Below, piece by piece: positions 23,676 through 37,560 of a DNA stretch of 64,000 nt. Positions within the stretch are counted from its first letter, which is position 1. Each line of letters begins with the position of its first letter. The notes under the pieces are model-generated. The model was given only the letters and a program-made list of their open reading frames with translations, did not search any database and was not told where the DNA came from. The DNA is from Candidatus Wolframiiraptor gerlachensis (GTDB lineage: Archaea > Thermoproteota > Nitrososphaeria_A > Caldarchaeales > Wolframiiraptoraceae). The stretch spans positions 1-64,000 of the forward strand of contig JAJPCT020000017.1 of assembly GCA_021323375.2 (NCBI GenBank), read 5' to 3'. A program made the translations under genes and the position numbers.

Positions 23676-24471
23676 GAGGATGCCTAAGCGCATTATAATT
23701 AAGGACTCGGATCTGGAGAATGCCGAGCCTGTCATAGAGCCTGTTGAGGAGGCTGAGAAGCCCGCTGAACCCTCCATCGAGGCTGAAATTACTGAGAGAA
23801 AGGAGGATATAATGCTTGAGAAGGCTATCGCGGATGCCGACGCGGCATATGAGCTCGTCCTCGGCAAGATAGATGAGATAAGGATTAGGGAGGAGGTTAC
23901 CCAGAAAAAGTTCTTGGATGATCCAGGGATGAGCCTCGCGATCCTGAAGAAGCTCATCCAGCGCTGGGACTCCATGAGAGAGGAACTGATACGCTATATT
24001 GATGACGCGATCGAGAGATATCGTAAACTGGCCGAGCTATTGGAGGAGAGGTTCTCGAGCATCGAGGAGGAACTTTACTTCAATCAAGTTGAGCTGGATA
24101 CGATAATGCAGCTTGAGTCTCAGGGAAAGCCTATCTCCGTCTCGAAGAAGGAGGAGCTTGAGAACCTTATCCCGAGGCTGAGGGAGGGGCTAGCCCAGCT
24201 CGATAAGAAGATCAAGGAGGTTAATGGAAGAATCGAAGAGCTTAAGAGGATGCGGGAGAACGTGTATGAGGCGACCTCATATAAGAGGCTCGCGGACGAT
24301 ATATTCACGCAGATAGTCAATAGCCTTCAGACGAAGTATGAGAGCCCGGAGGAGGCGGCGGTGAAGATCAGGTCTCAGGTCGAGATCATCGCCCAGCGCG
24401 AGGGGATCCCGAGGGAGTACGCGACTCTCTATCTCTGGAAGAGGTTAAAGGGCCAGCTTAGGACCGGCTGA
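23674..24471 (+). CDS. acidic coiled-coil protein of unknown function
   Basis: Short N-terminal strand, Pro/Glu linker, long heptad region. Confidence 0.75.
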   Translation: MRMPKRIIIKDSDLENAEPVIEPVEEAEKPAEPSIEAEITERKEDIMLEKAIADADAAYELVLGKIDEIRIREEVTQKKFLDDPGMSLAILKKLIQRWDSMREELIRYIDDAIERYRKLAELLEERFSSIEEELYFNQVELDTIMQLESQGKPISVSKKEELENLIPRLREGLAQLDKKIKEVNGRIEELKRMRENVYEATSYKRLADDIFTQIVNSLQTKYESPEEAAVKIRSQVEIIAQREGIPREYATLYLWKRLKGQLRTG

Positions 24472-24865
24472 GCACAGGCCTAAACTTGTAGCCATACTCG
24501 ATTATTCCCTGCTCCCCATTAACTCTCACTTTCCGGAAGACCGCCTCGACGCGGATACCATCTCTCAACTCATCCTCTTTGAAGTCTGTGAGCTGTGAGA
24601 GGATCTTCGTTCCATCCTCGAGCTCTATGAGGCCTATGGAGTATGGCGCGTAGCGCTCAAACTCTTTTGGAGGGGACCTGATCACCGTGTATGCTATAAG
24701 CCTGCCCGAGCCCGGTAGCTCGACTTGTGTGAACTCCCTAGACCTGCATCTCCTACAGATTACTGGCTTATAGTGGTGGAAGGCCCCACAGTGGGTACAT
24801 TTCCAGCCCGCGAGCCTATAGAGGAATGATATGTTTCTCCAGTAGCCGGTGACCCTCATACCCAT
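24458..24865 (-). CDS. DUF35 Zn-ribbon/OB-fold scaffold of the thiolase-HMGS complex
   Basis: CTHCG..CRRC, PYSIGLIELEDG, YGYKFRP. Confidence 0.93.
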   Translation of the reverse strand: MGMRVTGYWRNISFLYRLAGWKCTHCGAFHHYKPVICRRCRSREFTQVELPGSGRLIAYTVIRSPPKEFERYAPYSIGLIELEDGTKILSQLTDFKEDELRDGIRVEAVFRKVRVNGEQGIIEYGYKFRPVLSRS

Positions 24866-26025
24866 TACACCTCCTCTATTTTAAGCAGGCTTGTGAAGGC
24901 TGCTGCGCCGACGCCGCTCAAGGATATCGCCAGCCCAGTCCTCGGCTTATCAAGCTGATTCTTCCCAGCACGCCCAGTAAGCTGGAGATATATCTCCGCG
25001 ACTTGATAGATTGCTGTCGCGCCGAATGGATGGCCCCGCGCCTTAAGCCCCCCGAAGGTATTGCAAGGAAGGCGGCCATTTAGCCCGAACTCGCCCTTCA
25101 TGGCCAATTTGCCCGCGGCGCCGGGCGGAGAAAATCCCCCTGACTCCAAGCAGAGGGCGCCAAGTATGGATACTGAGTCATGGAGCTCCACCATGTTCAC
25201 CTCACCCCTACTGACCCCTGCCTGCTCCAATACCTTGCTCACCGACAACATGACGGACTGGAGCCTAAGAGGATCCTCCCTATCAAAGGGATTCATGTAA
25301 TCCGTCGCGGAGGATATGAATATCTTGATCTTGGGAGATTTCAGCCTGCGAGCTAGTCCCTCGCTCACGAGGACTAGTGCCGCCGCTCCATCACCTATAC
25401 CACTTACCTCCAGCATCCTAAGAGGCTCCGCGATGAACGGCGACTCTAAGACACGATCCAAGGTTATCTTGAATGGATACTGGGCGTGGGCAACCCCCTC
25501 CGCATGCTCATGGCTTATTACTGGGAAGAATGGTATACCCTCATCACCATATCTCTTTGAGTAGAGCCTATAGAGTAGGGCGCTTATGGCGTAGAAGTCT
25601 GCTCCCATAAAGCCCTCATACCAGCTCCTCCCACTCATCATCAGCATCCCGGATGAGACCTCCTCGGGGAGGCCGTCTGAGAGCTTCTCCCCGCCAATGA
25701 CTAGGACCGCCTCAGATCTGCCCGAGGCTATATCGCAGAACCCCGAGTAGAGCGCGGCGGCCCCGGATGCCTCAGCCGCCTCGGACCTGAATGCCGGCAC
25801 CCCGACGAGACCGGTGCACTCCGCCATTAATGCACCCAAATTCGCCTGACACTGAAGATACTCGCTCAGTGCGCATCCCACGTAGATGGCGTTCACCGTG
25901 GAGACTCCCGCATCCTCTAGAGCCTTTACAGCCGCCTCGGCCATGAGCTGTTCTAGATCCTTATCCCAATGCTCCGCGATCTTCGTGAAGCCAACCCCGG
26001 CAACATATACGCCCACCATCACCAT
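24865..26025 (-). CDS. acetoacetyl-CoA thiolase family protein
   Basis: DGAAAL, ELHD, GGLKARGHPFGAT; EAAEASG at the usual ACAS site. Confidence 0.9.
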   Translation of the reverse strand: MVMVGVYVAGVGFTKIAEHWDKDLEQLMAEAAVKALEDAGVSTVNAIYVGCALSEYLQCQANLGALMAECTGLVGVPAFRSEAAEASGAAALYSGFCDIASGRSEAVLVIGGEKLSDGLPEEVSSGMLMMSGRSWYEGFMGADFYAISALLYRLYSKRYGDEGIPFFPVISHEHAEGVAHAQYPFKITLDRVLESPFIAEPLRMLEVSGIGDGAAALVLVSEGLARRLKSPKIKIFISSATDYMNPFDREDPLRLQSVMLSVSKVLEQAGVSRGEVNMVELHDSVSILGALCLESGGFSPPGAAGKLAMKGEFGLNGRLPCNTFGGLKARGHPFGATAIYQVAEIYLQLTGRAGKNQLDKPRTGLAISLSGVGAAAFTSLLKIEEV

Positions 26026-27075
26026 TCACCTCATGAGTATCTCATCTCTCAGCTTCAAGTATGTCGAGTAGTCTATGTAGATCTTGTTCCTGATGAATTC
26101 AGCGAGCTTGGGCGCTAGATCCCTCTTCTCCAAGATGCCATCAAGAACTCTGAGCACGAAGGCGTCGCTACCAGCCCCCGAACCATATGATGCTACGAGG
26201 ATTCTCTGGCCCGGCTGAGCCTGATCCAAGACATTTACTAGGCCGAGCAGCGAGCAGGCGCTATAAGTGTTCCCGACAAAGTTCGCTATCAAGCCCGGCG
26301 AGACCTTCTCCTGCCCCACCTTGAAGTACTTCGCGACTGCTAGGGGGAACTTCATATTGGGCTGATGAAATATAACATAGTCTATCTCATTAAGCGTGTA
26401 GCCATCATTCTCGAGAAGGGATTGCACGGCGCCGATTATGTGCTTGAAGTATGCTGGCTCACCCGTGAACCTCGCAGCATGCATCGGATACCTATCACCC
26501 GGCCTTCTCCAGAAGTCTGGTGTATCGGTTGCATAGCCGCTCCAGGCCTCTATCTCTGCGATTGCCCTATGATCTGTTTTCCCCAGTATGAATGCGGCAG
26601 CCCCGCTTGCGGCCGTGTATTCAAGCGCATCGCCCGGCCTCCCCTGCGCCGTGTCGGCGCCGATCGCCAGTCCATATTCCACCTGGCCCGAGCGGATCAA
26701 GCTCGCTATTATCGCCATTGCTTCGCTCCCAGCCTTGCAGGCGAATTCTAGGTCTGCTGCAAGCTTCGTGGGAGAGGCTCCAATTGCCTCGGCCACAATC
26801 GTCCCGGTAGGCTTGACAGCATAGGGCTTCGACTCGCTCCCCACATAGACTGCGCCGATCCTCCTCGGGTCTATCTTGGCTCTTCTCAGGGCTATTCTCG
26901 CGGCCTCAACAGCCATCGTCGCCGCATCCTCATCAATACCGGCCACCGTCTTCTCCGCGACGGGAAACCCGGACTTATCCTGCCCCCACATCCGGCCTAT
27001 CTCCTCGGCCCTTATCCTGTATCTCGGGATATAGCCGCCGTAACCTTGAATCGCCACCCCACCTAGCTTAACCAT
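26026..27075 (-). CDS. hydroxymethylglutaryl-CoA synthase
   Basis: GSESKPYAVKP, EFACKAG, FHQPN, GNTYS, SYGSGAG. Confidence 0.95.
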   Translation of the reverse strand: MVKLGGVAIQGYGGYIPRYRIRAEEIGRMWGQDKSGFPVAEKTVAGIDEDAATMAVEAARIALRRAKIDPRRIGAVYVGSESKPYAVKPTGTIVAEAIGASPTKLAADLEFACKAGSEAMAIIASLIRSGQVEYGLAIGADTAQGRPGDALEYTAASGAAAFILGKTDHRAIAEIEAWSGYATDTPDFWRRPGDRYPMHAARFTGEPAYFKHIIGAVQSLLENDGYTLNEIDYVIFHQPNMKFPLAVAKYFKVGQEKVSPGLIANFVGNTYSACSLLGLVNVLDQAQPGQRILVASYGSGAGSDAFVLRVLDGILEKRDLAPKLAEFIRNKIYIDYSTYLKLRDEILMR

Positions 27076-27184
27076 ATCTCCCCCGGAGCTTTTTTCCGGG
27101 CCCCTCTTAAATATTGTCGAGGACATGTTCGTTGATTAACGTAGAGAGAAGCCTTAAGCATCGAGCGCCCTAGCCTGCAAGTGT

Positions 27185-27655
27185 ATGAGGAAGGCCGTCA
27201 AGCGTGCAGAGAAGCTCGATGAGAAGGATCTTCTTATCCTGAGGGAGCTTGAGCTGGATTCGTCTAGGAGTTTGAGGGAGCTTGCCGAGGTCTTGGGCAT
27301 GCCGAGGACGACAGTCCAAGATAGGATTAACAGGCTTAGGAGGATTGGTGTGATAAAGGGCTTCACGGTGAAGCTTGATAAGGCGAAACTCGGCAAAAGC
27401 ACACTCGCCTTCGTCCTCGTCTCCTTCATGCCCGGCTCTGACATCTCCCAGAAAGCCCTAGCCCATGAGATCGCCATGCTCGACAATGTCGAGGAGGTCC
27501 ATCTTATCACAGGAGAATGGGATATACTGCTCAAGGTAAGAGGATCCTCAATCAAGGAGATAGGAGACTTGGTCATAGACAAGCTTAGGGGGATGCGTGG
27601 GGTCGCGAGAACCCTCACCTGCGTCGCCGTCCACAGCGTCAAAGAGGATCCATGA
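27185..27655 (+). CDS. Lrp/AsnC family regulator
   Basis: LDEKDLLIL HTH, ITGEWDILLKV. Confidence 0.93.
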   Translation: MRKAVKRAEKLDEKDLLILRELELDSSRSLRELAEVLGMPRTTVQDRINRLRRIGVIKGFTVKLDKAKLGKSTLAFVLVSFMPGSDISQKALAHEIAMLDNVEEVHLITGEWDILLKVRGSSIKEIGDLVIDKLRGMRGVARTLTCVAVHSVKEDP

Positions 27656-27667
27656 GGAGCAAATTAT

Positions 27668-27738
27668 CCGCGTATTCCCATAAGCTATGGATACGTATTC
27701 CATTATACGCGGTCTTAAGCATAGGTTTTATGCCTATG
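27668..27738. promoter_or_regulatory. nested palindromes upstream of vps4/cdvC
   Basis: ccgcgtat/atacgcgg, ccata/tatgg, atacgtat, catagg-TTTTATG-cctatg. Confidence 0.6.
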
Positions 27739-27764
27739 GATTCCCGGGGAAAGGCTCGAAGGAT

Positions 27765-28865
27765 ATGAAAGAGCTTGAGAGGCTCGCAGCTGAAAAGGCT
27801 CGCGCCGCCGTCAAATATGATAAGATCGGGATGAGGGAGGAGGCGGCGAAGCGGTATCGCGAGGCTATAGCCCTCCTAGAGAAGCTCATAGAGCTCACTG
27901 ATGACCCGGTCATGAAGAGGATCTACGAGGAGAAACAGGCGCAGTATAGGCGGAGGATCGAGGCGCTAAGCGAGAAGGTCTCGGTTGGCGGGAGATCCGA
28001 TGAGCAAGCTGAGGTTGATGAGAGCTTCATAATCCAGAATCCGCCACCCGTCAAGTGGGATGATGTAATTGGATTGGAACAGGCGAAGAAGGCTATTCTC
28101 GAGAGCATAATCTACCCCATGAAGAGGCCTGACCTCTTCCCACTAGGATGGCCTCGCGGGATTCTGTTATTCGGGCCCCCGGGCTGTGGCAAGACCATGC
28201 TCGCGGCCGCGGTCGCGAACGAGATAGACGCGGTCTTCATGCACGTGGATGCCTCTCTGATAATGTCGAAGTGGCTCGGCGAGTCTGAGAGAAACATAGC
28301 CAAGATCTTCAACGCCGCGAGGAAGTATGAGTCCACGGGCAAGCCCGTGATAATCTTCATAGATGAGGTGGACTCGCTTGCCGCGGTGAGGCTGAATGAG
28401 GTTGGGGGAGAGGCTAGAGCAAGAAACCAGCTGATAAAGGAGATGGATGGCCTGCTGGATAAGGGCAGGAAGAGCCTAATCTATATACTGGCCGCGACGA
28501 ATAAGCCCTGGCTCCTTGACGAGCCTTTCATCAGGAGATTCCAGAAGAGGATCTACATAGGATTACCGAGTTATGAGGCGAGGCTCCGGCTATTCCAATA
28601 CTATGCGGGGAAGCTGAACCTTGATAACGTGGACTTCGCGGAGCTCGCGAAGATAACGGAGGGCTACTCAGCCGCCGACATATACTCGATATGCGTGGAA
28701 GTTCAGACGAAGATCGTCAGCGAGTTCTTCGAGCAGGGTGGAGAAGAGCCGAGGAAGATAACAATGGAAGACTTCTTGGAGGTTATCAGGAGCAGGAAGC
28801 CAAGCATCGACCCAAAGAGCATAGAGAAGATGATGGAGTGGTATGAGAGGTTTGGCGCCCTCTAG
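27765..28865 (+). CDS. cdvC: Vps4/CdvC AAA+ ATPase with MIT domain
   Basis: MIT (AVKYDK..YREAI), GPPGCGKT, SKWLGESE, FIDEVD, RRFQKR; start ATG 27765. Confidence 0.92.
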   Translation: MKELERLAAEKARAAVKYDKIGMREEAAKRYREAIALLEKLIELTDDPVMKRIYEEKQAQYRRRIEALSEKVSVGGRSDEQAEVDESFIIQNPPPVKWDDVIGLEQAKKAILESIIYPMKRPDLFPLGWPRGILLFGPPGCGKTMLAAAVANEIDAVFMHVDASLIMSKWLGESERNIAKIFNAARKYESTGKPVIIFIDEVDSLAAVRLNEVGGEARARNQLIKEMDGLLDKGRKSLIYILAATNKPWLLDEPFIRRFQKRIYIGLPSYEARLRLFQYYAGKLNLDNVDFAELAKITEGYSAADIYSICVEVQTKIVSEFFEQGGEEPRKITMEDFLEVIRSRKPSIDPKSIEKMMEWYERFGAL

Positions 28866-29602
28866 CCGACGAGCTCTATCAACCCCTTCTCCTCTAATTT
28901 CATCAGTATCTCCTTAACCTGCTTGACGTCTATTCCAAGCTCCTTCGCGCATTTCTTCAGGTTGATCTCGGAGCCGGCTTTCGATAGATATGAATAGACC
29001 ATCTGCTCGATCTCCGAGAGCTGCGGGACGTCCGGGAATGATTCCTTGATCCGCTCGGCCGCGAGCCTTCTAGCCTCTTCAAGAACCTTCTTCGCGTCCT
29101 CGCTCACCTCCTGTGTTCCGATCTCCACGGCACTGGCCATATTCGAGCTAGTGAAGTCCTCGATGTAGCAAGCGAGCTCGTGCAAGTTCTTGGCCGCATC
29201 CGGCGCCACCCCAGCCACCTCATCCTCCACTTCAGCAATTAGCGAGAGGAGAGGCACGACTAAGCCTATGAGATCACTCACCTCGATTATCGTCTCGAGC
29301 CTGAGCTTCACCTGTTCCAGCATCAGCTGCGACCTCCTAACCATCTTAGCCAGCTTCCTCAACTCAGCTATCTCCTCGGCATATATTGAGGCCCTCTCCT
29401 CGTCCCCAGACTCCATGGCGTCCACGACCTGCTCGAAGTATTCCTTGCTCCTTGACACCAGCTCTCGATACTTGGACTCGAGCCTAAGGATCTGGGCATT
29501 AAGCTTGCTAAGGGACTGCTCAAGATTACGCCTAACCTCCTCTCTCGCCTCCTCGTCAATGAATGGATCTACTTTATAGCCGTCTCCGCCAGGCACTTGC
29601 AT
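28862..29602 (-). CDS. cdvB: ESCRT-III CdvB with MIM2-like motif and C-terminal winged helix
   Basis: RASIYAEEIAELRK..LEQVKLRLET, FPDVP, wH ending LEEKGLIEL. Confidence 0.9.
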   Translation of the reverse strand: MQVPGGDGYKVDPFIDEEAREEVRRNLEQSLSKLNAQILRLESKYRELVSRSKEYFEQVVDAMESGDEERASIYAEEIAELRKLAKMVRRSQLMLEQVKLRLETIIEVSDLIGLVVPLLSLIAEVEDEVAGVAPDAAKNLHELACYIEDFTSSNMASAVEIGTQEVSEDAKKVLEEARRLAAERIKESFPDVPQLSEIEQMVYSYLSKAGSEINLKKCAKELGIDVKQVKEILMKLEEKGLIELVG

Positions 29603-29723: not shown

Positions 29724-31178
29724 TCAGGAATACCTCCTCCCAAATAGGAGCCTCGTCTCCCCCATGGCCCTCAGCTCCACCTCCCTAACCCTTACGACCA
29801 CCGGGAGATCATTCACCACGCGACCTATTATCAGGCAGTGCCTCGGGGGGAGCATCTTCGCTATCCTCTTAACCGTGTCAGAATCCACCCTTGAGGCCTT
29901 AGATATATAGTTCAGGTCAGACTCGTTCGTGAAGTTGAAGAGGAAGATGTTGTCGGCCTGCCTATATATCATCTCGGGGATACTGTCAGGTTGATTCGTC
30001 ACGAATATTGGGAATATGCCGATATGCCTCATCCGCGTTACCAAATCATCCCAGTAGGTCTCCCTGAGGTATAGATGGGCCTCCTCAGCTACTAGGAAGA
30101 GGGGGTCTATGGCGCCTTCGCGCAAGAGGCTCGAGAGCTTGCTCAACACATACTCCACGATTATCTTCTTCGTCTGGTGGATGCTATTCGAGAGATCTAT
30201 CACGATTATCCCGCCGCTCCTAGAATTCAATACATCCTCGATCCTTACTGGGCTCTCATCATCGAAGAAGCCGGTCTCGCTGAGGCTTAGTAGCCTGCTC
30301 ATCAACGCCTCCCTCACCGACTCATGCATCTGCATCCTGCTGACCGCGTTTATCAGCCCCCTCAACGTAACCCTCCCCTCATTTCTCTCAACGGAGCTCC
30401 AGATCCTCATGAACTCCCTAATCGTGGTCGCGGGCGTCGCGAGGATGTGCTGGAGTATATCGGCCATAGTCTTGAGGCCGGCATCCTCAACCGAGACCCT
30501 GAAATTTTCCCCCGGCGTTAGCACATAATGCCTACCAGCCATCCTGCTCACCGAGCCATCAACGGTCTCTGATAGGCCGATGTATTCGCCGTTTATATCG
30601 AAGACCACCACCGTGGCCCCATACTCCGCAAGCGATGTTATCAGAAGCTTCGTCAGATAGGATTTACCAGTCTCCTTCTTTCCCGTTATTATCGTGAGCC
30701 TTCCATCAAGATCCTCGGCATATATTGAGATCGTCCCACTCATGCATTCCCCGATAATTATCCTCCTCCGGCCGCATGTCCTCATGAGATCGGAGATAAG
30801 CTCCGGAGAGGCCTTCTCTATCCTTGAGTTGAACCTAGATGGAAGCCAGATCACATCATTCCTCAGCGATCCATCAACGATTACTCCGCGGAACTTCGCT
30901 ATTATCCTGCGGGAATCCCTCACATCGAGGAGTATCGAGCCGACGCCATATGGGTCGAAATTCTTCATCGAGAAATGTTCTGATGCGAGCTCCCTCAGCA
31001 CGTCCTCGAGTATCCCCGGGACATCAGCATATTCTATGTCTATCACCTGTGCTAGGATGGATCTACCGCCATCAGTTATGAGTATGTAGTCTCCACGGAC
31101 TAGGGGCTCCTCATCAGGTGAGGCAAGGAGCTCGATCGTATCGCCATTCTTCGATAGTATCTTCACCTCGCAAATCAC
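29724..31178 (-). CDS. herA: HerA/FtsK family ATPase
   Basis: HAS-like N-terminus, GKKETGKS, FDINGEY, AEEAH, RMRHIG, TNQP. Confidence 0.88.
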   Translation of the reverse strand: MICEVKILSKNGDTIELLASPDEEPLVRGDYILITDGGRSILAQVIDIEYADVPGILEDVLRELASEHFSMKNFDPYGVGSILLDVRDSRRIIAKFRGVIVDGSLRNDVIWLPSRFNSRIEKASPELISDLMRTCGRRRIIIGECMSGTISIYAEDLDGRLTIITGKKETGKSYLTKLLITSLAEYGATVVVFDINGEYIGLSETVDGSVSRMAGRHYVLTPGENFRVSVEDAGLKTMADILQHILATPATTIREFMRIWSSVERNEGRVTLRGLINAVSRMQMHESVREALMSRLLSLSETGFFDDESPVRIEDVLNSRSGGIIVIDLSNSIHQTKKIIVEYVLSKLSSLLREGAIDPLFLVAEEAHLYLRETYWDDLVTRMRHIGIFPIFVTNQPDSIPEMIYRQADNIFLFNFTNESDLNYISKASRVDSDTVKRIAKMLPPRHCLIIGRVVNDLPVVVRVREVELRAMGETRLLFGRRYS

Positions 31179-32209
31179 CTCCTATCAATCGGGTTGAAGA
31201 GCATGTCTCGTATCGAGTCCTCCCTAAAGAGCTCGGCCCCCAGTCCTCTGAGCATCGCCTGTATCGCGATCACATCGCTCTTCGTGAACGTGCAATAGTC
31301 ATGGGCTAGTATAAGGAGCTCCGGATACCCGTAGATCAGTGGGTCGCTTTTCAGGAGGCTTCCGAACACCTCCTCAACCCTCCTGCATGTCACTGCATCA
31401 ACCCTGTAGGCGCTGAGCCCAGAGCTGAGCTTAGCGAGAAACGTCCTCCCGAGGACGCGAACCCGCATCTCAAGCCCCTCGATTAGCCATGTCATGTCGA
31501 TTATGTATGGTGGTTTGGCACCAAGCCTATCATCCGTGAATATCGAGCTCCAGAACTGGAGGATGCTCGTCTTTGAGAATGCTAGGATATCGTTGCCCCG
31601 CGGCCTAGCCTCCTCAAGTATCCTCGAGACGAGCCATAGCGGGTTATCCTGCGGCCCAGCGGAGAGGGATCCATCCACAAGTATTATGCTATCCTTGAAC
31701 TGCTTGACGACATGCTCTTGGAGGCGTTTCTCGAGGAGGCTGGCCAGCATCTTTTGGATGGAGCCATCCAGCTGATAGCCTGATAAGTCGAGGGGCGGGA
31801 GGTCTCCGAAGATCGATCCGAGGACACTTGTGATGTTCTCCGGGGTTAGGTATACAATGAAGGGGCCGACCCTCTGGATCTCCAGGCCGAGCGTGTTCCT
31901 GACAGCTATGCTGCCCCTAACCCCTAGGATAATGCCATCCCTCCCCACTGCGACGACTATTGAGGAAGTATCTATGGCCACGACCTGCCTCTCCACCGCG
32001 CCCTCCAAGGGTATGCTAATCGCGGAGACATCCAGCTGCTCAGCCTGCTCAATAAGCCTCAAATCCCAATCATTTTGAGCAAAACTCTCCTCATCAAACT
32101 CCATCGAGTAGGCCCCGTTGACAAGACCTAGGCTTCTCCGCCCTACCTCTAGGAAAGGCTTAAAGATTATCTCGAAATCGTTTAATCTGGGTTGGGCGAG
32201 TTGGCTCAT
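31175..32209 (-). CDS. nurA: NurA family nuclease
   Basis: VAIDTSS, LVDGSL, FSKTS, GYPELLILAHDYC; stop overlaps the herA start. Confidence 0.85.
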   Translation of the reverse strand: MSQLAQPRLNDFEIIFKPFLEVGRRSLGLVNGAYSMEFDEESFAQNDWDLRLIEQAEQLDVSAISIPLEGAVERQVVAIDTSSIVVAVGRDGIILGVRGSIAVRNTLGLEIQRVGPFIVYLTPENITSVLGSIFGDLPPLDLSGYQLDGSIQKMLASLLEKRLQEHVVKQFKDSIILVDGSLSAGPQDNPLWLVSRILEEARPRGNDILAFSKTSILQFWSSIFTDDRLGAKPPYIIDMTWLIEGLEMRVRVLGRTFLAKLSSGLSAYRVDAVTCRRVEEVFGSLLKSDPLIYGYPELLILAHDYCTFTKSDVIAIQAMLRGLGAELFREDSIRDMLFNPIDRR

Positions 32210-32280
32210 GTCCCTGGTCTCCCCGATTTTATTGGTCTTCCTGTGCTTATAAATGTTGCTCAACTTGAGCAAGATGGGAA

Positions 32281-32712
32281 ATGAGCGGGAAGGACAAAAT
32301 CAAGGTCGAGATCATGATAGGCCCCGCCACCGTTAGGGTTGAGGCTCCACCCGACCAGATAGAGGAGGCTGTGAGAAACGCCGTTACCGCCCTTAGATCG
32401 GCTTTACCCGAGCTTGGGGCTGAGGCCTCACTTAGCGGGCCTGCTATGGCCAAGCCTGAGAAAGCTCGGCGGAAGCCAGCGCCGACATGCTCCGAGCTTA
32501 TAAGGGGGCTTATAGAGGAGGGCTGGTTCGATCAGCCCAGAACGTTATCCGAGGTTGTTCAGGAGCTGGCTAAGAGGGGCTATCATTATGACTCGACCGC
32601 GGTTGCGCACAGCCTGCTAGATCTCGTGAGGGAGAGGGCGCTTGTGAGGGAGGGCATTCCAAGGCGCTATGTCTATCGTAGGCCTCCGCCCGCCGCCTGG
32701 GAAGGAGGATGA
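32281..32712 (+). CDS. winged-helix protein, paralog 1
   Basis: N-terminal KVEIMIG..VEAP; LIEEGWFDQPRTLSEV..LVREG..YVY. Confidence 0.8.
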   Translation: MSGKDKIKVEIMIGPATVRVEAPPDQIEEAVRNAVTALRSALPELGAEASLSGPAMAKPEKARRKPAPTCSELIRGLIEEGWFDQPRTLSEVVQELAKRGYHYDSTAVAHSLLDLVRERALVREGIPRRYVYRRPPPAAWEGG

Positions 32713-32713
32713 A

Positions 32714-33232
32714 CTAGCCCTGCTCCACCTCTCCCGCCAAGCCCTTCTTCGAGAACTTGTCGGCAAGATACTTTACTCCCAGGGGGGTTATGGTATAGTC
32801 TCCGCGATCAAGCCTCCTGAGGAGCTCTAGTTGAACAAGCTTCGTGAGATTATTCATTATTGTCTTCTTCTTTGCTGGTAGAACTGCCTCAAGCTCTCCG
32901 GGGCTTATATTTGGCGCCTCGATCCTCCCCAGCTTATGCTCCAAGTATTTCCTCAGGGCTAGTAGGAGGATTTGATCGGAAACTGATTTCAGCTGGCTTA
33001 GGCTGATCTTGAGGAAGAGGCCCTCCTGCGCATCATATACGAAGACTTCGCTAAAAGCCTCCAAGAGATCTTTCAAGTCCATGTTGAATGCGATCTTCCT
33101 AGCAAGCGAGTACGCTGGCAGAGTCTTCTCTATAAATGCTATGATCTGGCGGTAGACCGCCTCCGGCGGCCCCGAGAAGCTCATCTCAAGATCACCATAT
33201 CTTATTGTTACCTTAAGCTCCTCCATGCTCAT
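32714..33232 (-). CDS. winged-helix protein, paralog 2
   Basis: KVTIRYGDLEMSFSGPPEAV; C-terminal RGDYTITPLG. Confidence 0.8.
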   Translation of the reverse strand: MSMEELKVTIRYGDLEMSFSGPPEAVYRQIIAFIEKTLPAYSLARKIAFNMDLKDLLEAFSEVFVYDAQEGLFLKISLSQLKSVSDQILLLALRKYLEHKLGRIEAPNISPGELEAVLPAKKKTIMNNLTKLVQLELLRRLDRGDYTITPLGVKYLADKFSKKGLAGEVEQG

Positions 33233-33699
33233 GCCTCCTCACCAAATAGCTCGTTAATGGAGCCTGATGTGAATGAATATAATCCTTCATTGGTCTTGGC
33301 GACGAGCCCTGCTTTTCTCAGCTCACTCAGCCTCGCTCTGGCAACCCGCTCATCGAGGCCTGTGCAGACCGCTATCTCCTTGGGCGTGAGATGCTCCTTC
33401 TCGAAGAGACCGAGCCTCCTCCCGACATAGGCCGCTGCTAGGCAAAGGAGTATCCTCCTCTTGGCATCCCTCTCCTTCATGATTATTATCCTGCCATCCC
33501 TGAATTCGACAAGGCCCTCGAGCTTCCTCGCGAGACCTGTCAAGTCCACGGCTCCGGTAAGCTTCTTGGCAACCTCGAGCGCTGGATAAGTCTCGGAGAA
33601 GAACTTGTTCACGCTCCTCCAAACTTCCTCATAGCCTCCCTCGAACTCCACCTCAGTCTCGCCGCACTTGATCACGACCTTAACCCTCTCAGAGCTCAT
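33229..33699 (-). CDS. winged-helix protein, paralog 3
   Basis: KVVIKCGETEVEFEGGYEEV; ARLSELRKAGLV..GLY. Confidence 0.8.
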   Translation of the reverse strand: MSSERVKVVIKCGETEVEFEGGYEEVWRSVNKFFSETYPALEVAKKLTGAVDLTGLARKLEGLVEFRDGRIIIMKERDAKRRILLCLAAAYVGRRLGLFEKEHLTPKEIAVCTGLDERVARARLSELRKAGLVAKTNEGLYSFTSGSINELFGEEA

Positions 33700-34187
33700 C
33701 CCCCGCCACCTCCCCCGCTCATGAGCTTCTCAACATATTCAATCCCCTTTCTCAATATCCGGAAGACCTTGCGATCATTCTGCTTCCCAGCATCCTCCAT
33801 GTAGCCCTCGCGGATCAGATGAGACATTACATCCCAGACATTCTTCGGCATGGGCCATCTAGCCTGAGCATAATACTTCTCAACATCCTCGTATGTCAGA
33901 TCCCTCCCTTCCTGCCTGTAGAGGTAGTAGGCTATTGTCAGAAACTTCTCCCAGTTCTTCTCGGGATTCACGTGGCTCGCGAACTCAACGAAGGATGAGA
34001 AGCTCGCGGTTGTCATGACCGCCAGCTGCTGAGGCGCCTTAACCGTCTCCTGCCTTCCAAGGCCTCCAAGCCTCTCGAGAAGCGCGTCGATCCAGCTTAG
34101 ATCCGCGAACCTGGCTTCAAGGAACTCCCTGTCTCCCTCGAGTTCCAGCTCCAGCCCCCCAACCTTTACCCTAAGCCTGTATGTCAT
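33696..34187 (-). CDS. winged-helix protein, paralog 4
   Basis: RLRVKVGGLELELEGDREFL; FRILRKGIEYVE. Confidence 0.8.
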   Translation of the reverse strand: MTYRLRVKVGGLELELEGDREFLEARFADLSWIDALLERLGGLGRQETVKAPQQLAVMTTASFSSFVEFASHVNPEKNWEKFLTIAYYLYRQEGRDLTYEDVEKYYAQARWPMPKNVWDVMSHLIREGYMEDAGKQNDRKVFRILRKGIEYVEKLMSGGGGGG

Positions 34188-34303
34188 CTGTGCCTCAAGG
34201 AAAATTGTTCCCTTATCAGGCTATTAAGGCTTAGGGACCCGGTCGAAAATGAGGTTTCATGAATGTTCTTGGGCACGTTTAAGGCACCGGTCATACGTGG
34301 ATT

Positions 34304-36220
34304 CTAGGGATATGTTTGGCCGGTTTGGCCATACACTGCTTGGGAGACGAGCTGATATAGCTTTCCCCCGTCAAACCTCCCGCGATAAGTCTTCATGAGC
34401 TCGCCCATGATCACGGAGATCGCCTTCCCGGGGTTCGATCTGACGAGGTCTCGATTAGCCTCCACGAGCTCAGCGATCCGGGCTCTAATTTCCTCAAGGC
34501 TGGCGGCTCTTAATCCCAAGGCATTTATCGCATCATCCAAGTTCTTGCCGGGATTCTGGGCGAGCCATTTAATGATCTCGGGAGCAGCCTCCTTCGCCAG
34601 CTCCCCCCTCACCACACGCCTAAAGAACTCGAGGAGATCCTCCTCCCTGATCTTCTCTACTTCATAGCCCTCGCGCCTTAGGCTCTTCATGTGCTCCACG
34701 AGTATCGAGGCCGCTATGCTGGGCTGGACGCCCGTCTCCCCAACTACTCTCTCGAAGAGCTCAACCTTCTCCGAGTCTATCAGCTCATCAGCAATCTGCC
34801 TGCTTACCCCATATCTCCTCGAGATCCACTCGGCGACCTCGTCGAGGCTTGGTGGAAGCCGGCGCCTAACCTCCTCAACATATTCTCTTGGTAGTGGGAG
34901 TGGCGGGATATCGGTCTCAGGATACATTCTAGCAGCCCCGGGCCTCGGCCTCAAGTATATCGTGGTTCCATCCGGCTTTGCTCCACGAGTCTCTGATGGC
35001 ACGCCGTGAAGAGCCTCGATCGCCCTCTCCCTAACCTTCTCAAGCGCATCCTCAGCCCTCTCCCGCTCAGCCGCGACTATGACGACCGCGTCGAGGTCGC
35101 CGGCCCCAACCTCCTCCCTCAACCTCGCAATCTCCTCCTCTGAGATCCCATAGCCGGGCAGCTCATCGGTATGAAATATCCCCTCGACATCAGACCATGC
35201 TCTAGCCCTTCCCGCGAGCTCTGCTCCAAGCCTTATCCCCGGAGCCGCCTCCAGCCCCAGAAGACCTCTAAATCCCCTAAGCTTCAGCGCCAGAACAACG
35301 CCGCCCGCCTCAATCTTCCTCCGAAGAATCTTGGATGAGGTCTTCGCGAATATTTGTGTAACATCCCTTATCGGCTCCCGCCTAAGATCATCCTCAGACA
35401 CTCCCCTATTTCTCAATTCATCCCTTATCTTGAGGAGGTGGAGTTGTCTAACTACCTCGAGTTCGATGACCTTTGGCAGAAGGTCTAGCTCCTGGACTCC
35501 CTTAATCTCGACGAGGGCTCCACCTGTTATCGAGATGTTTAGATCCTGCCTGACGGTTCCTATTCCTCTCTTGACCCTTCGCGTTGCCCTGAGTATCCTT
35601 CCTATGGCATATGCGACCTTATACGCCTCCTCCGGCGAGTTTATCACCGGCGCTGTCGAGACCTCGATCAAGGGTATCCCGAGCCTCGAGAGATCATAAT
35701 GCACCTCATGCGGCTTCTGTTCGATTATCCGGGCTGCATCCTCCTCGAGTGTTATCGTCTGTATTGGAATCTTCTTCCCATTAACCTCAATCTCCCCTCC
35801 CAATGCTATCACACATGTCCTCTGGAACCCGGTAGTATTCGACCCATCTATGACTATCTTTCTCATTATGTGGATCTCATCTACTGGCCTCGCCTTCATC
35901 ATGAGTGCTGCTGTGAGCGCTATCTCAACCGCCTCCCTATTCAGATCATGCGGCGGCTCCTCATCAAGCTCCACGAGACACGTGTTCTCTGTGTTCGCGT
36001 GATAGACTATCATCCTCCGCTTCCGGGACTCGAAGAGGGCTGCTGGATCAACCTCTCCGAGCTCGCTCTGGGCCTCCCTCAGCCACCTGATGAAGACTAT
36101 CTCCCTGCCACCCTCCCTCGGCGTCGTTGGGCAGTCGCAGAATAGCTTATGCCGCGTATCAAGCTGTCTATGGATCTCCAAGCCAACCTTCAGGCCGATC
36201 TCCCTATAGTCGATCTTCAT
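34304..36220 (-). CDS. gatE: Glu-tRNA(Gln) amidotransferase subunit E
   Basis: GLEIHRQL, DGSNTTGFQRT, PRPGAARMYPETD. Confidence 0.97.
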   Translation of the reverse strand: MKIDYREIGLKVGLEIHRQLDTRHKLFCDCPTTPREGGREIVFIRWLREAQSELGEVDPAALFESRKRRMIVYHANTENTCLVELDEEPPHDLNREAVEIALTAALMMKARPVDEIHIMRKIVIDGSNTTGFQRTCVIALGGEIEVNGKKIPIQTITLEEDAARIIEQKPHEVHYDLSRLGIPLIEVSTAPVINSPEEAYKVAYAIGRILRATRRVKRGIGTVRQDLNISITGGALVEIKGVQELDLLPKVIELEVVRQLHLLKIRDELRNRGVSEDDLRREPIRDVTQIFAKTSSKILRRKIEAGGVVLALKLRGFRGLLGLEAAPGIRLGAELAGRARAWSDVEGIFHTDELPGYGISEEEIARLREEVGAGDLDAVVIVAAERERAEDALEKVRERAIEALHGVPSETRGAKPDGTTIYLRPRPGAARMYPETDIPPLPLPREYVEEVRRRLPPSLDEVAEWISRRYGVSRQIADELIDSEKVELFERVVGETGVQPSIAASILVEHMKSLRREGYEVEKIREEDLLEFFRRVVRGELAKEAAPEIIKWLAQNPGKNLDDAINALGLRAASLEEIRARIAELVEANRDLVRSNPGKAISVIMGELMKTYRGRFDGGKLYQLVSQAVYGQTGQTYP

Positions 36221-37560
36221 GGTGCAACCACCTCCCGGATCGAGGGCATGCTCCTCTCGCCCATCTCGCCCGCAATAGGCGTCAGCATGAGCTTCTTCAC
36301 CTCCTCCAAGTCACGTGCTCTAGCAAGACACCATGATAGCTTCACATAAGCGGTCTCGGGGAGCATGTCATCGAGCGGCACGACGCCAGCCTTAAGCAAG
36401 TATCTCCCCGTATCATAGACCCTCATGTTTATCCTACCGAAGATGCATTGCGATGTCATACCTATGAAGACACCTTCATCTACAAGTCTTCTTATCGTTG
36501 GGATTAGCTTGTTGGCGACGTGGCCTAGGCCCGTCCCCTCCAGTATAATCCCCCTAATTCCGAGATCGTGGACTGCTTCTAGGATCTCGGGCGGCATCCC
36601 CGGGTAGAACTTGATGAGAGCAGCATCCTTCGAGAATCCTGGCTCAAACCTATAGTCTCCCGAGCCGCGCGGGTTCAGGTTCCTTGCATTGATCTTTATC
36701 TCGCCCCCTGAGACATATGCTATTGGCTCTGAGTTCACAGATTTGAATGCATCCCTGCTGCTCGTGTGGAGCTTTCTCACCCTCGTTCCCCTATGGATCG
36801 CTATCACAGTGTCGGAGTGCCATGCGTGCATCGAGACGCAGACCTCCGCGAATGGCGCGTGGCCAGCGATCCTGACAGCCGCGATAAGATTTGTTGCTGC
36901 ATCGCTTGAGGGCCTATCAGAGGATCTCTGAGCGCCAACGAAGACCACTGGAACCGGGGGCTTCTGGAGCGCGAAGCTTAGTGCCGCGGCCGAGTATCCC
37001 ATGGTATCGGTTCCATGCGCTATCACCACGCCCTCAACGCCTCCCCTGATCAGCTTATCAACCTCAGCCGCCATCATGTTCCAGTGATCCGGCGTCATAT
37101 CCTCGCTATATATCGAGAACAGGATCCTTGCATCAAGATCCGCGATATCGGCGAGCTCGGGGACTATTGAGAGCAGATCCTCGGCGGTGAGCGCCGCCCT
37201 AACACCGCCAGTCCTATAATCTATCCTGCTGGCTATAGTGCCGCCTGTGCTCACTATCACGACTTTGGGTAGTCCCGGCTTCTGCGGCGGTCGCGGGGGC
37301 GGGATGAACCTCGGCTTAGCCGCTCGGGCCACCCTCCTGATCGAGGTAATACTAGAGGCATTTATCCCAATATTATATCCGTTCGGGAGCTTTATGACTA
37401 TGTATCCGGGATCCGCGAGCTCGTATCTCGACATTAATATCCCGCGGTAAACCTCATCTCCCGCCTGGATCTCCACCTCGTCTCCAACCTCTACGCCGGC
37501 CCTCTCTAGGAGGGCTCGAACCTCGCCATGGTATCCTTGTAGAGCATCTTGATCGCTCAA
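36217..37560 (-). CDS. gatD: Glu-tRNA(Gln) amidotransferase subunit D
   Basis: TGGTIASRIDYRTG, HGTDT, GAQRSSDRPSSD. Confidence 0.97.
   Translation of the reverse strand: MSDQDALQGYHGEVRALLERAGVEVGDEVEIQAGDEVYRGILMSRYELADPGYIVIKLPNGYNIGINASSITSIRRVARAAKPRFIPPPRPPQKPGLPKVVIVSTGGTIASRIDYRTGGVRAALTAEDLLSIVPELADIADLDARILFSIYSEDMTPDHWNMMAAEVDKLIRGGVEGVVIAHGTDTMGYSAAALSFALQKPPVPVVFVGAQRSSDRPSSDAATNLIAAVRIAGHAPFAEVCVSMHAWHSDTVIAIHRGTRVRKLHTSSRDAFKSVNSEPIAYVSGGEIKINARNLNPRGSGDYRFEPGFSKDAALIKFYPGMPPEILEAVHDLGIRGIILEGTGLGHVANKLIPTIRRLVDEGVFIGMTSQCIFGRINMRVYDTGRYLLKAGVVPLDDMLPETAYVKLSWCLARARDLEEVKKLMLTPIAGEMGERSMPSIREVVAP

Follow-up and report, generated by a model that had tools for sequence, protein, structure and literature searches.

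HerA-NurA is a core DNA-break-processing machine of archaea, and its regulation and targeting are poorly understood. In Sulfolobus and Pyrococcus, it consists of a DUF87 ATPase translationally coupled to a NurA-type nuclease with D/E/D/H-type motifs. The canonical operon is not known to include companions similar to the four proteins described below. The HerA and FtsK ATPases are said to form one superfamily, and in FtsK a winged helix, the gamma domain, reads KOPS, a DNA word dispersed over the chromosome. Small winged-helix (wH) proteins are also found in MarR/ArsR repressors, among them autoregulating ones, with a helical bundle as the dimerisation element of MarR, and in ESCRT-II (Vps22/Vps25/Vps36), a hetero-oligomer with two winged helices per protein.

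We analysed a window of 64,000 nucleotides, i.e., the whole stretch of DNA from Candidatus Wolframiiraptor gerlachensis, in which an extra, very divergent NurA-HerA pair adjoins four paralogous genes, designated P1 to P4. PMC9246946 reports a relative of Wolframiiraptor in cultivation. We found no published description of this module in the accessible portions of the literature on HerA/NurA and archaeal winged-helix/ESCRT proteins, and the terms "HerA" and "NurA" do not occur in the available part of PMC10936438 (Makarova et al. 2024), which deals with ESCRT systems. A second NurA-HerA system of this kind spans large uncultivated archaeal groups, and an accessory family that has no Pfam or NCBIfam model, together with a class-spanning operator, provides testable handles on it.

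Organization of the locus

Four short open reading frames form the module. P1 (32281..32712, plus strand, 143 aa) comprises a beta-hairpin and a helix, a disordered linker and a winged helix. The other three genes are on the minus strand and form an operon led by P4 (33696..34187, 163 aa), the most divergent paralog; P3 (33229..33699, 156 aa) is the central gene and P2 (32714..33232, 172 aa) is the final one. P4 and P3 overlap by 4 nt (33696-33699), and so do P3 and P2 (33229-33232); P1 converges on the operon, and a single base separates its last position, 32712, from the terminal position of P2, 32714. The ORF check thus bears out the gene positions and the arrangement proposed by the sequence-only reading, including the coupling of three paralogs by 4-nt overlaps, which recur in all six related loci that hold P4, P3 and P2 (L014-L017, L020 and L021).

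Directly upstream of P1, and divergent from it, lies a pair of minus-strand genes (29724-32209) encoding a NurA-like nuclease (31175..32209) and a HerA-like ATPase of 484 aa (29724..31178), the start of the latter overlapping the end of the former by 4 nt. This pair, the conserved partner of the paralogs, had been overlooked in the sequence-only reading. Beyond the HerA-like gene, at a distance of 120 bp, this genus has the genes for CdvC (27687-28865) and for a CdvB whose C-terminus is a winged helix (28862-29602).

The NurA-like and HerA-like proteins

The window's NurA-like protein matches Pfam NurA (PF09376) with 19.0 bits, under the gathering cut-off of 21. At the level of the family, 16 of 18 members reach E <= 0.01 against NurA, the lowest value being 2.6e-8, and a relative in L072 scores 24.3 bits. 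The sole PDB profile match is S. solfataricus NurA (2ygk, E 0.031), in which AIDGGS, LMDGSL and GYPFPLLKAH align with the motifs AIDxS, LxDGSL and GYPxxLxxAH. D80, D179 and H303 are invariant among 18 sequences and E160 is nearly so; we take these four residues to be catalytic. Translation probably starts at the ATG at 32209; a longer ORF from the TTG at 32272 would start within the palindrome described below.

The HerA-like protein scores 54.2 bits against Pfam DUF87/HerA (PF01935; cut-off 23.2, E 2.7e-14) and matches the HerA structure 4d2i with E 4.8e-9. Its translation contains a Walker A motif GKKETGKS and a Walker B-like motif LVAEEAH, and G166, K168, G171, K172, S173, E365, E366 and A367 are invariant in 10 sequences. 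It is not the canonical equivalog of the double-strand-break-repair helicase: the matches to NF040937 (37.1 bits, cut-off 800) and NF040819 (32.3 bits, cut-off 970) are partial, and HerA_Thermprot is matched in the C-terminal part only (1.2e-9). Thus, the pair resembles the archaeal HerA-NurA of Sulfolobus and Pyrococcus in the translational coupling and in the retained nuclease motifs, and differs from it in the strong divergence of both proteins and in being an extra copy that has no Mre11/Rad50 neighbours. The genome contains a separate NurA of 427 aa (contig C9, 28.6 bits) and a separate HerA-like DUF87 ATPase adjoining a Rad50/SMC-like gene (contig C20).

Conservation of the linkage

The HerA-like protein has 566 relatives in GTDB genomes. 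In a set of 20 Caldarchaeales loci, the HerA-like, NurA-like, P1 and P2 genes were each found in 18, P3 in all 20 and P4 in 10. All of the 20 loci taken from elsewhere in the phylum contain P2/P3-type genes, 17 contain a NurA, either divergent or bona fide, 15 the HerA-like gene and 13 a P1-type gene; a bona fide Pfam NurA (1e-19 to 1e-20) is the partner in six of the phylum loci. A further set of 80 loci from Caldarchaeales and Bathyarchaeia, which shares some genomes with these two sets, was anchored on the HerA-like gene. The NurA-like gene accompanies it in 78 of these loci and P1 in 66, each time directly upstream of the NurA-like gene and divergent from it. In 37 of the 80, P2/P3-type genes are no more than 6 kb away from the HerA-like gene, so their tie to the pair is looser than that of P1. 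The linkage of P1-P4 to NurA-HerA is therefore conserved across Caldarchaeales and Bathyarchaeia, and it holds while HerA identity drops from 96% to 45%. The gatD/gatE synteny around the module is conserved as well; in genus g5 (L022 and L023), P4-P3 stand beside gatED, and P2, P1, NurA and HerA are not nearby.

A family of four paralogs with a shared N-terminal module

The relationship among the paralogs was assessed with sequence searches, profile-profile comparisons and structural models. A search of the genome with P3 retrieved P2 (E 7.9e-12, 27% identity), and hhalign aligned these two proteins over their full length (E 2.6e-26, prob 99.7). The remaining profile pairs gave much higher E-values: 8e-4 for P3-P4, 3e-4 for P3-P1, 7e-4 for P2-P1, 1.3e-4 for P2-P4 and 4.7e-5 for P1-P4. 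Judged by sequence, P2 and P3 are clear homologs, and P1 and P4 are more remote ones (E 1e-3 to 2e-5). P4 can be tied to the family indirectly, because it matches a third, phylum-wide class (A9) with E 2.1e-5 (prob 77, 142 columns), and this class in turn matches the P2/P3 family with E 4.8e-23.

The N-terminal pattern that had been read from the translations is visible in all four proteins, in a looser form in P1 and P4, and the hairpin is in register in all six pairwise profile-profile alignments. HMMs of about 45 N-terminal residues, built with the window's own sequences excluded, were run against the 5377 ORFs of at least 50 aa in the genome. The P1 HMM found P3 as its top non-self match (E 0.0021, the next match being at 0.14), the P2 HMM found P3 (2.6e-9) and the P3 HMM found P2 (7.4e-6); the P4 HMM retrieved nothing significant among these ORFs, with P3 at rank 7 (E 2.9). 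AF2 models were made for P1 and P3 and contain the same N-terminal elements. In P3 (pLDDT 84), strands 6-12 and 15-21 and a helix at 23-37 precede the winged helix; in P1 (pLDDT 75), strands 7-13 and 16-22 and a helix at 27-41 are followed by a disordered linker (45-63) and the winged helix. The proposal of a shared N-terminal module thus holds.

P1-P4 are paralogs that diverged long ago within a single, hitherto undescribed family, which combines this module with a C-terminal winged helix. In this genome the family is confined to the one locus. P3 has 87 homologs, and of the 41 related genomes 37 contain a match to it. In the tree, P2 clusters with 16 P2-type proteins from other classes (UFboot 82 / SH-aLRT 91), and the paralog classes probably predate the split between Caldarchaeales and Bathyarchaeia.

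The winged helices, also proposed from the sequence, were found by structure match in P1 and P3, by homology in P2 and by profile alignment in P4. Residues 74-156 of P3 match 2x4h (Z 9.6, rmsd 1.9, 69 aligned residues) and the MarR protein 7kfo (Z 9.5). Residues 65-143 of P1 match 2mh2 best (Z 10.0; rmsd 1.7 with 64 residues aligned for residues 69-135), and also DNA-binding domains of the Fur family (Z 9.6-9.7). In both models, the H1-(S1)-H2-H3-wing topology agrees with that of solved wH domains. It should be noted that these wide structure searches with VIA-align covered the wH portion of each of the two proteins. The net charge of the winged helix is zero in P1 and P4, i.e., these domains are not basic. 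In P1, the segment GYHYD-TAVAH-LLDLVR is almost invariant across classes, with an overall identity of merely 32-38%.

As had been suspected, the proteins fall outside described families, since all matches to Pfam and NCBIfam models stay below the respective cut-offs. Among the Pfam families of the MarR/ArsR/TrmB type, the best matches of P3 are HTH_20 (17.9 bits) and MarR_2 (17.7 bits), each with a cut-off of 27, and P1 and P4 have no Pfam wH match at E < 0.01. The N-terminal module corresponds to no Pfam family, and searches with the P3 model and with family profiles matched no solved structure to its hairpin and helix. Foldseek with the P3 model against PDB gave only wH matches, none at E <= 0.001; residues 1-76 of P3 yielded no usable match in the ESM Atlas; and PDB profile searches with A6, a diverse alignment of the family, and with A2 gave matches that were insignificant or restricted to the wH region. 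Hence, P1 and P3 resemble MarR/ArsR repressors in the fold of the C-terminal domain, and the family is unlike MarR in its predicted dimerisation element, a separate N-terminal beta-hairpin and helix in place of a helical bundle, and unlike MarR/ArsR in the presence of four paralogs in fixed order.

The P1 promoter and a candidate operator

Upstream of P1 (32248..32272, plus strand), a TATA box, TATAAAT, is followed by a perfect 8+1+8 palindrome, TTGCTCAAcTTGAGCAA, at 32256-32272, which ends 8 nt ahead of the start codon. The TATA box with the inverted repeat occurs once in the 1.28-Mb genome; 0.20 matches to the pattern would be expected per window. A regular-expression search found the operator neither upstream of the P4 operon nor elsewhere in the genome. 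When two mismatches were allowed, a single further site appeared on contig C5, and the reversed control pattern also gave one match. The TATA box with the first half-site is present once, upstream of P1, in all 19 Caldarchaeales sources that have P1; the corresponding counts are 9 for the 20 phylum loci and 63 for the 80 HerA-anchored ones. The TATA-proximal inverted repeat is therefore a unique, class-spanning feature of the P1 promoter, and its position between the TATA box and the start codon is similar to that in autoregulating MarR/ArsR repressors. A single conserved operator facing P1 fits a specific regulator, and P1 is a candidate operator-binding repressor.

The promoter region of the P4-P3-P2 operon (34188..34303, minus strand) has elements of its own. 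A by-eye comparison of 11 loci revealed family-level conservation of two GTGC boxes, CAYTTTC, AAGCCTTAATA and GCACAG ahead of the ATG.

Proposed role and alternative explanations

P1-P4 adjoin an extra NurA-HerA pair together with a conserved control site in numerous uncultivated archaea, and therefore they most likely control or guide NurA-HerA and act outside the cell-division apparatus. In its specific form, our proposal is that P1-P4 constitute a module dedicated to both the control and the targeting of a second, divergent NurA-HerA, in which P1 would be the repressor that binds the operator; we regard the chances for and against this as about equal. Several observations weigh against it: the looser tie of the P2/P3-type genes, the arrangement in genus g5, the different promoter of the P4 operon, which does not carry the operator, the non-basic winged helices of P1 and P4, the score of the NurA-like protein under the Pfam cut-off, and the finding that fusions to NurA or HerA are absent from the representatives listed. 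In this scheme, a P1 dimer would bind the palindrome via the almost invariant winged helix and would repress its own promoter, probably also the back-to-back nurA-herA promoter. Given that the operator sits downstream of the TATA box of P1, its control over nurA-herA is something we only infer. P2, P3 and P4 would be co-translated from the coupled operon and would pair with one another, possibly also with P1, via the common N-terminal module; they might either modulate P1, e.g., upon DNA damage, or serve as a tether between NurA-HerA and DNA.

The original interpretation of the locus, a wH adaptor for CdvB/Vps4 analogous to ESCRT-II or, alternatively, a chromatin-bridging hetero-oligomer similar to H-NS/Rok, now appears very unlikely. 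Small wH proteins encoded near ESCRT-III/Vps4 genes are reminiscent of ESCRT-II in this genus, in which CdvC and the wH-bearing CdvB follow the HerA-like gene, and ESCRT-II wH chains are among the structure matches of P1 (1u5t_B, Z 8.1, rank 33; 3cuq_B, Z 7.9, rank 44). However, these chains score on a par with dozens of unrelated wH proteins, many of them regulators, and ESCRT-II is found neither among the 50 structure matches listed for P3 nor among the 60 PDB profile matches listed; the similarity appears to be at the generic wH level. The models of P1 and P3 contain one winged helix each, not a tandem pair, and no more than 8 of the 40 related loci have Cdv genes next to the module: CdvB/CdvC are found at a distance of up to about 9 kb in 8/20 Caldarchaeales loci and in 0/20 elsewhere in the phylum. 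Likewise, a family restricted to a single locus, with P1 facing one unique and deeply conserved operator, is ill-suited to the role of an abundant nucleoid protein. A different connection to division, to which we attach little probability, is that of a phylum-wide housekeeping NurA-HerA targeted to DNA by a P1-P4 hetero-oligomer, as an analogue of FtsK gamma; clustering with CdvB/Vps4 in Wolframiiraptor-like archaea would then reflect the clearing or resolving of chromosomal DNA at the ESCRT-III division site. The likeness to FtsK gamma/KOPS would be one of analogy only, a winged helix that may read a DNA word beside an ATPase of the HerA-FtsK superfamily, whereas here the winged helices are on separate polypeptides and the conserved word is one promoter site rather than a dispersed chromosomal motif.

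Three further explanations compete with a control module of this kind. P1-P4 might be ordinary ArsR/MarR-like regulators, functionally unlinked to the adjoining NurA-HerA; their matches to known models are weak and generic (MarR_2, HTH_20, ArsR), and one source labels homologs as ArsR family regulators. Yet the synteny with NurA-HerA is kept throughout the range of HerA identities in both groups, the specific N-terminal module is common to all paralogs and the translational coupling is conserved, which makes a lack of connection improbable. Alternatively, the paralogs might be stoichiometric structural subunits of NurA-HerA, i.e., adaptors for DNA ends or sites that replace Mre11-Rad50, and not mainly transcription factors. 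This is rather unlikely, although it finds support in the tight operon-level linkage, with the paralogs and NurA-HerA in one co-directional operon in some lineages (e.g., L072, L075, L080, L082, L086, L088 and L089), in the location of the Rad50-like gene beside the other HerA-like gene and not beside this pair, and in the nuclease-like N-terminal extension of the relatives P0165 and P0196, a motif recognized by eye that has no Pfam match. The operator and the invariant recognition region, however, point to a sequence-specific regulator, at least in the case of P1; 43 of the 80 HerA-anchored loci have no P2/P3-type genes in the 6-kb flank; and among the 150 representatives listed none is fused to NurA or HerA, nor did the A6 search retrieve longer forms of the family at E <= 1e-5, weak evidence by the nature of that search. 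If the paralogs were indeed subunits or adaptors, they would represent a new mode of coupling a HerA/FtsK-type motor to DNA.

The third explanation, in which HerA would belong to an anti-phage or mobile defence system and the wH proteins would be its sensors or regulators, seems very improbable. The best PADLOC match of the HerA-like protein is mad8 (1.6e-16), and generic models of defence-type HerA are matched too. Fusions to a Ser/Thr kinase or to DUF488 occur in distant members of the family; a domain of about 200 aa that has no assignment is the other fusion among the 150 representatives. Against a role in defence, PADLOC gave no match for P1, P4 or the NurA-like protein and only weak generic wH matches for P2 and P3, and the flanks that were examined showed no genes for integrases or mobile elements. 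There is one copy of the system, and the identity of the HerA-like protein declines with taxonomic distance, from 95-96% to 45-48%, a sign of vertical inheritance. The conserved gatD/gatE synteny points in the same direction, as does an intein in one HerA copy.

The four genes and the adjoining NurA-HerA pair

Re-reading the ORFs gave the same coordinates, 4-nt overlaps and convergence that the sequence-only reading had described for the four small paralogs P1-P4. P1 (32281-32712, plus strand, 143 aa) is convergent with P2 (32714-33232, minus strand, 172 aa), and 4-nt overlaps join P4 (33696-34187, minus strand, 163 aa) to P3 (33229-33699, minus strand, 156 aa) and P3 to P2. None of the four had a Pfam or NCBIfam match above the cut-off; P2 and P3 produced weak, generic winged-helix matches in their C-terminal halves only. 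The window has a G+C content of ~53% and comes from a genome of 1.28 Mb (27 contigs, 89% complete), whose closest named relatives by the HerA-like gene are Candidatus Wolframiiraptor MAGs (Caldarchaeales/Aigarchaeota; 95% and 86% identity); the source names of P3 homologs are consistent with this placement.

Directly past P1 lies a NurA-like and HerA-like pair, followed by CdvB, with its C-terminal winged helix, and CdvC/Vps4, whereas GatE and GatD flank the paralog cluster on the opposite side. The NurA-like gene (31175-32209/32272, minus strand) scores 19 bits against Pfam NurA, just below the cut-off, and overlaps by 4 nt the HerA-like ATPase gene (29724-31178, minus strand; Pfam DUF87, 54 bits). 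The longer NurA ORF, from TTG 32272, would begin within the palindrome described below; therefore, ATG 32209 is the likelier start. In the NurA-like family, D80, D179 and H303 are invariant and E160 nearly so, Pfam NurA is matched by 16 of 18 members, and S. solfataricus NurA is the only PDB profile match, through the AIDxS, LxDGSL and GYPxxLxxAH motifs. The HerA-like family keeps the Walker motifs. This pair is an extra one in the genome: a separate 427-aa NurA is encoded on contig C9, and another DUF87 ATPase adjoins a Rad50/SMC-like gene on contig C20.

Conserved partner of the paralogs

Using tblastn with the window's proteins, we surveyed 20 Caldarchaeales loci spanning four families. P3 was present in all 20, HerA-like, NurA-like, P1 and P2 in 18 each, GatE/D in 14, P4 in 10, and CdvB/CdvC in 8, the latter restricted to three genera in the family to which the window belongs; in family f2, one gene stands for P2 and P3 together. 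Outside Caldarchaeales, all ORFs of 20 loci from other lineages of the phylum were clustered. P2, P3 or third-class genes, 2-4 in tandem, occurred in 20/20, any NurA in 17/20 (divergent NurA-like, 11/20; a bona fide NurA in its place, Pfam 1e-19 to 1e-20, 6/20), HerA-like in 15/20, P1-type in 13/20 and CdvB/C in 0/20. In a library of 1.8 billion proteins, the P2/P3-family profile had 443 representatives at E <= 1e-3. It also matched 164 of 301 sampled phylum genomes at E <= 1e-5, mostly as adjacent gene pairs; the weakest matches in these genomes (~1e-6) may be generic winged helices.

A third set was anchored on the HerA-like protein, which has 566 confirmed relatives among GTDB species genomes. 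The 80 best-matching loci, ranging in identity from 96% to 44%, cover Caldarchaeales (Wolframiiraptor, Geocrenenecus, Caldarchaeum, Pelearchaeum) and many Bathyarchaeia, and share some genomes with the two 20-locus samples. NurA-like was adjacent in 78/80, P1 was directly upstream and divergent in 66/80 (most others are truncated by a contig end), P2/P3-type genes lay within 6 kb in 37/80, and P4 was found in 9/80. Based on these locus counts, the conserved partner of the paralogs is NurA-HerA, not the Cdv genes, and P1 is the paralog most tightly bound to it.

Other neighbors recur as well. The gatE-gatD genes (window 34304-37560) adjoin the paralog operon in 14/20 Caldarchaeales loci (L014-L029), and GatE is next to paralog genes in 9/20 other phylum loci (L071-L086), an unusually deep synteny of a tRNA amidotransferase with these genes. 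A neighbor of ~236 aa (LPRRLSF..LVAYLNAGAD...NISRNN.FLKSWGF), without a Pfam match and absent from the window, stands beside the paralog genes in 7/20 phylum loci (L071:5673-6386, L073, L074, L076, L077, L079, L081). One HerA of the second type (the type that partners bona fide NurA) contains an intein, at L081:3962-6556 (Intein_splicing, 2.1e-16); at L077:14831-17698, an Lhr-type helicase (DEAD, DEAD_assoc, WH_Lhr) comes after a HerA of this type.

The shared N-terminal module and its history

By sequence comparison, P2 and P3 are unambiguous full-length homologs (tblastn E 7.9e-12, hhalign E 2.6e-26). P1 and P4 are far more distant (pairwise profile comparisons, E 8e-4 to 4.7e-5), with the N-terminal hairpin in register in every comparison involving either. 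As a control, HMMs of the N-terminal ~45 residues, built from orthologs only with the window's own sequences excluded, were searched against all 5377 genome ORFs of at least 50 aa. The P2 and P3 modules retrieved each other (2.6e-9 and 7.4e-6), and the top non-self match of the P1 module was P3 (E 0.0021; next 0.14); the P4 module had no significant match among these ORFs. P4 is tied to the family indirectly, since it matches (E 2.1e-5, prob 77, 142 columns) the third small gene class that heads the operon in many other lineages (alignment A9), and this class is clearly related to the P2/P3 family (E 4.8e-23).

The AF2 models of P1 and P3 agree with a shared module. The P3 model (pLDDT 84) has strands 6-12 and 15-21 and helix 23-37, then two more helices, a second hairpin and the winged helix; the P1 model (pLDDT 75) has strands 7-13 and 16-22 and helix 27-41, then a disordered linker (45-63) and the winged helix. 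The winged helices match solved structures (Z 9.6 for P3, 10.0 for P1); no solved match covered the N-terminal part, which was compared only within the larger chains.

A maximum-likelihood tree built from 87 P2/P3/P4-type proteins recovered every Caldarchaeales class as monophyletic (100/99 to 100/100) and gave P4 a very long branch. The P2 class was joined by 16 P2-type proteins from other classes (82/91) and the P3 class by two (90/91); therefore, the duplications probably took place before the orders diverged, with moderate support.

A candidate operator at the P1 promoter

A perfect palindrome, TTGCTCAAcTTGAGCAA (32256-32272), ends 8 bases before the P1 start codon, immediately after a TATAAAT box (32248-32254). 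It occurs once in the genome; the chance expectation is 0.2 matches per window. The loose pattern of TATA box plus first half-site had one match, upstream of P1, in 19/19 P1-bearing Caldarchaeales sources, and was found in 9/20 other phylum loci, with 3 off-target matches in 771 kb; it was also present in 63/80 HerA-anchored loci. The site is an 8+1+8 repeat in Caldarchaeales and a 7+9+7 inverted repeat, TTGTGCA-n9-TGCACAA, in Bathyarchaeia. Across classes, the P1 winged-helix segment GYHYD.TAVAH.LLDLVR..L.R.G..RRY.Y hardly varies, whereas overall identity is only 32-38%. The palindrome is a candidate operator conserved across classes, and we infer that dimeric P1 binds it and represses, at a minimum, the P1 promoter. 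By eye, a TATA-like nurA element sits back-to-back at ~20 bp distance; joint control is thus plausible.

The P4-P3-P2 operon promoter (34188-34303) has two GTGC boxes ~10 bp apart, a CAYTTTC box, TATA-like AAGCCTTAATA and GCACAG before the ATG; these elements are kept at the family level and differ from the P1 operator.

Proposed role and alternatives

There is about an even chance that P1-P4 form a module dedicated to controlling and targeting the second NurA-HerA machine, in which P1 would be an operator-binding autorepressor and P2-P4 partners pairing through the shared module. Possible hetero-oligomers, the central idea of the sequence-only reading, are suggested by three points: translational coupling of the paralog genes, P2- and P3-type genes that constantly occur together, and lower model confidence of isolated N-terminal modules (pLDDT 56-82). 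The main rival, in which the paralogs are structural subunits of the NurA-HerA machine, appears unlikely. The earlier suggestions of an ESCRT-II-like adaptor beside CdvB or a chromatin-bridging complex are, even taken together, highly improbable; the adaptor had been placed beside genes found in 8/20 Caldarchaeales and 0/20 other loci. A mobile defence system is very unlikely, given that PADLOC assigned the small proteins to no specific defence system and that HerA-like identity follows a vertical pattern. We found no published description of a paralog/NurA-HerA module in the parts consulted of the literature on HerA/NurA, winged helix, CdvB/ESCRT-II and Bathyarchaeia/Aigarchaeota, and the consulted part of a 2024 ESCRT survey (PMC10936438) mentions neither HerA nor NurA.

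The Cdv cluster and distant family members

The Cdv cluster (27154-29602) adjoins HerA-like and comprises a 162-aa gene without a Pfam or NCBIfam match (27154-27642, minus strand), CdvC/Vps4 (27687-28865, plus strand; NCBIfam CdvC E 1.3e-151) and CdvB with its C-terminal winged helix (28862-29602, minus strand). The three hold the same position in 8 related loci (L014-L021), and the 162-aa protein might stand in for CdvA. At 24458-27126, three co-directional genes (thiolase, HMG-CoA-synthase-like protein, ChsH2/DUF35-type OB-fold protein) look like the usual archaeal mevalonate-pathway trio.

Distant members of the paralog family include fusions (P0106, P0202, P0165, P0196): for example, in one a Ser/Thr protein kinase precedes two copies of the C-terminal part of the module, and another is joined to DUF488. 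Further distant members have a ~200-aa N-terminal domain without a Pfam match, whose PDG...YE(L/C)K pattern, read by eye, resembles the PD-(D/E)xK nuclease motif.
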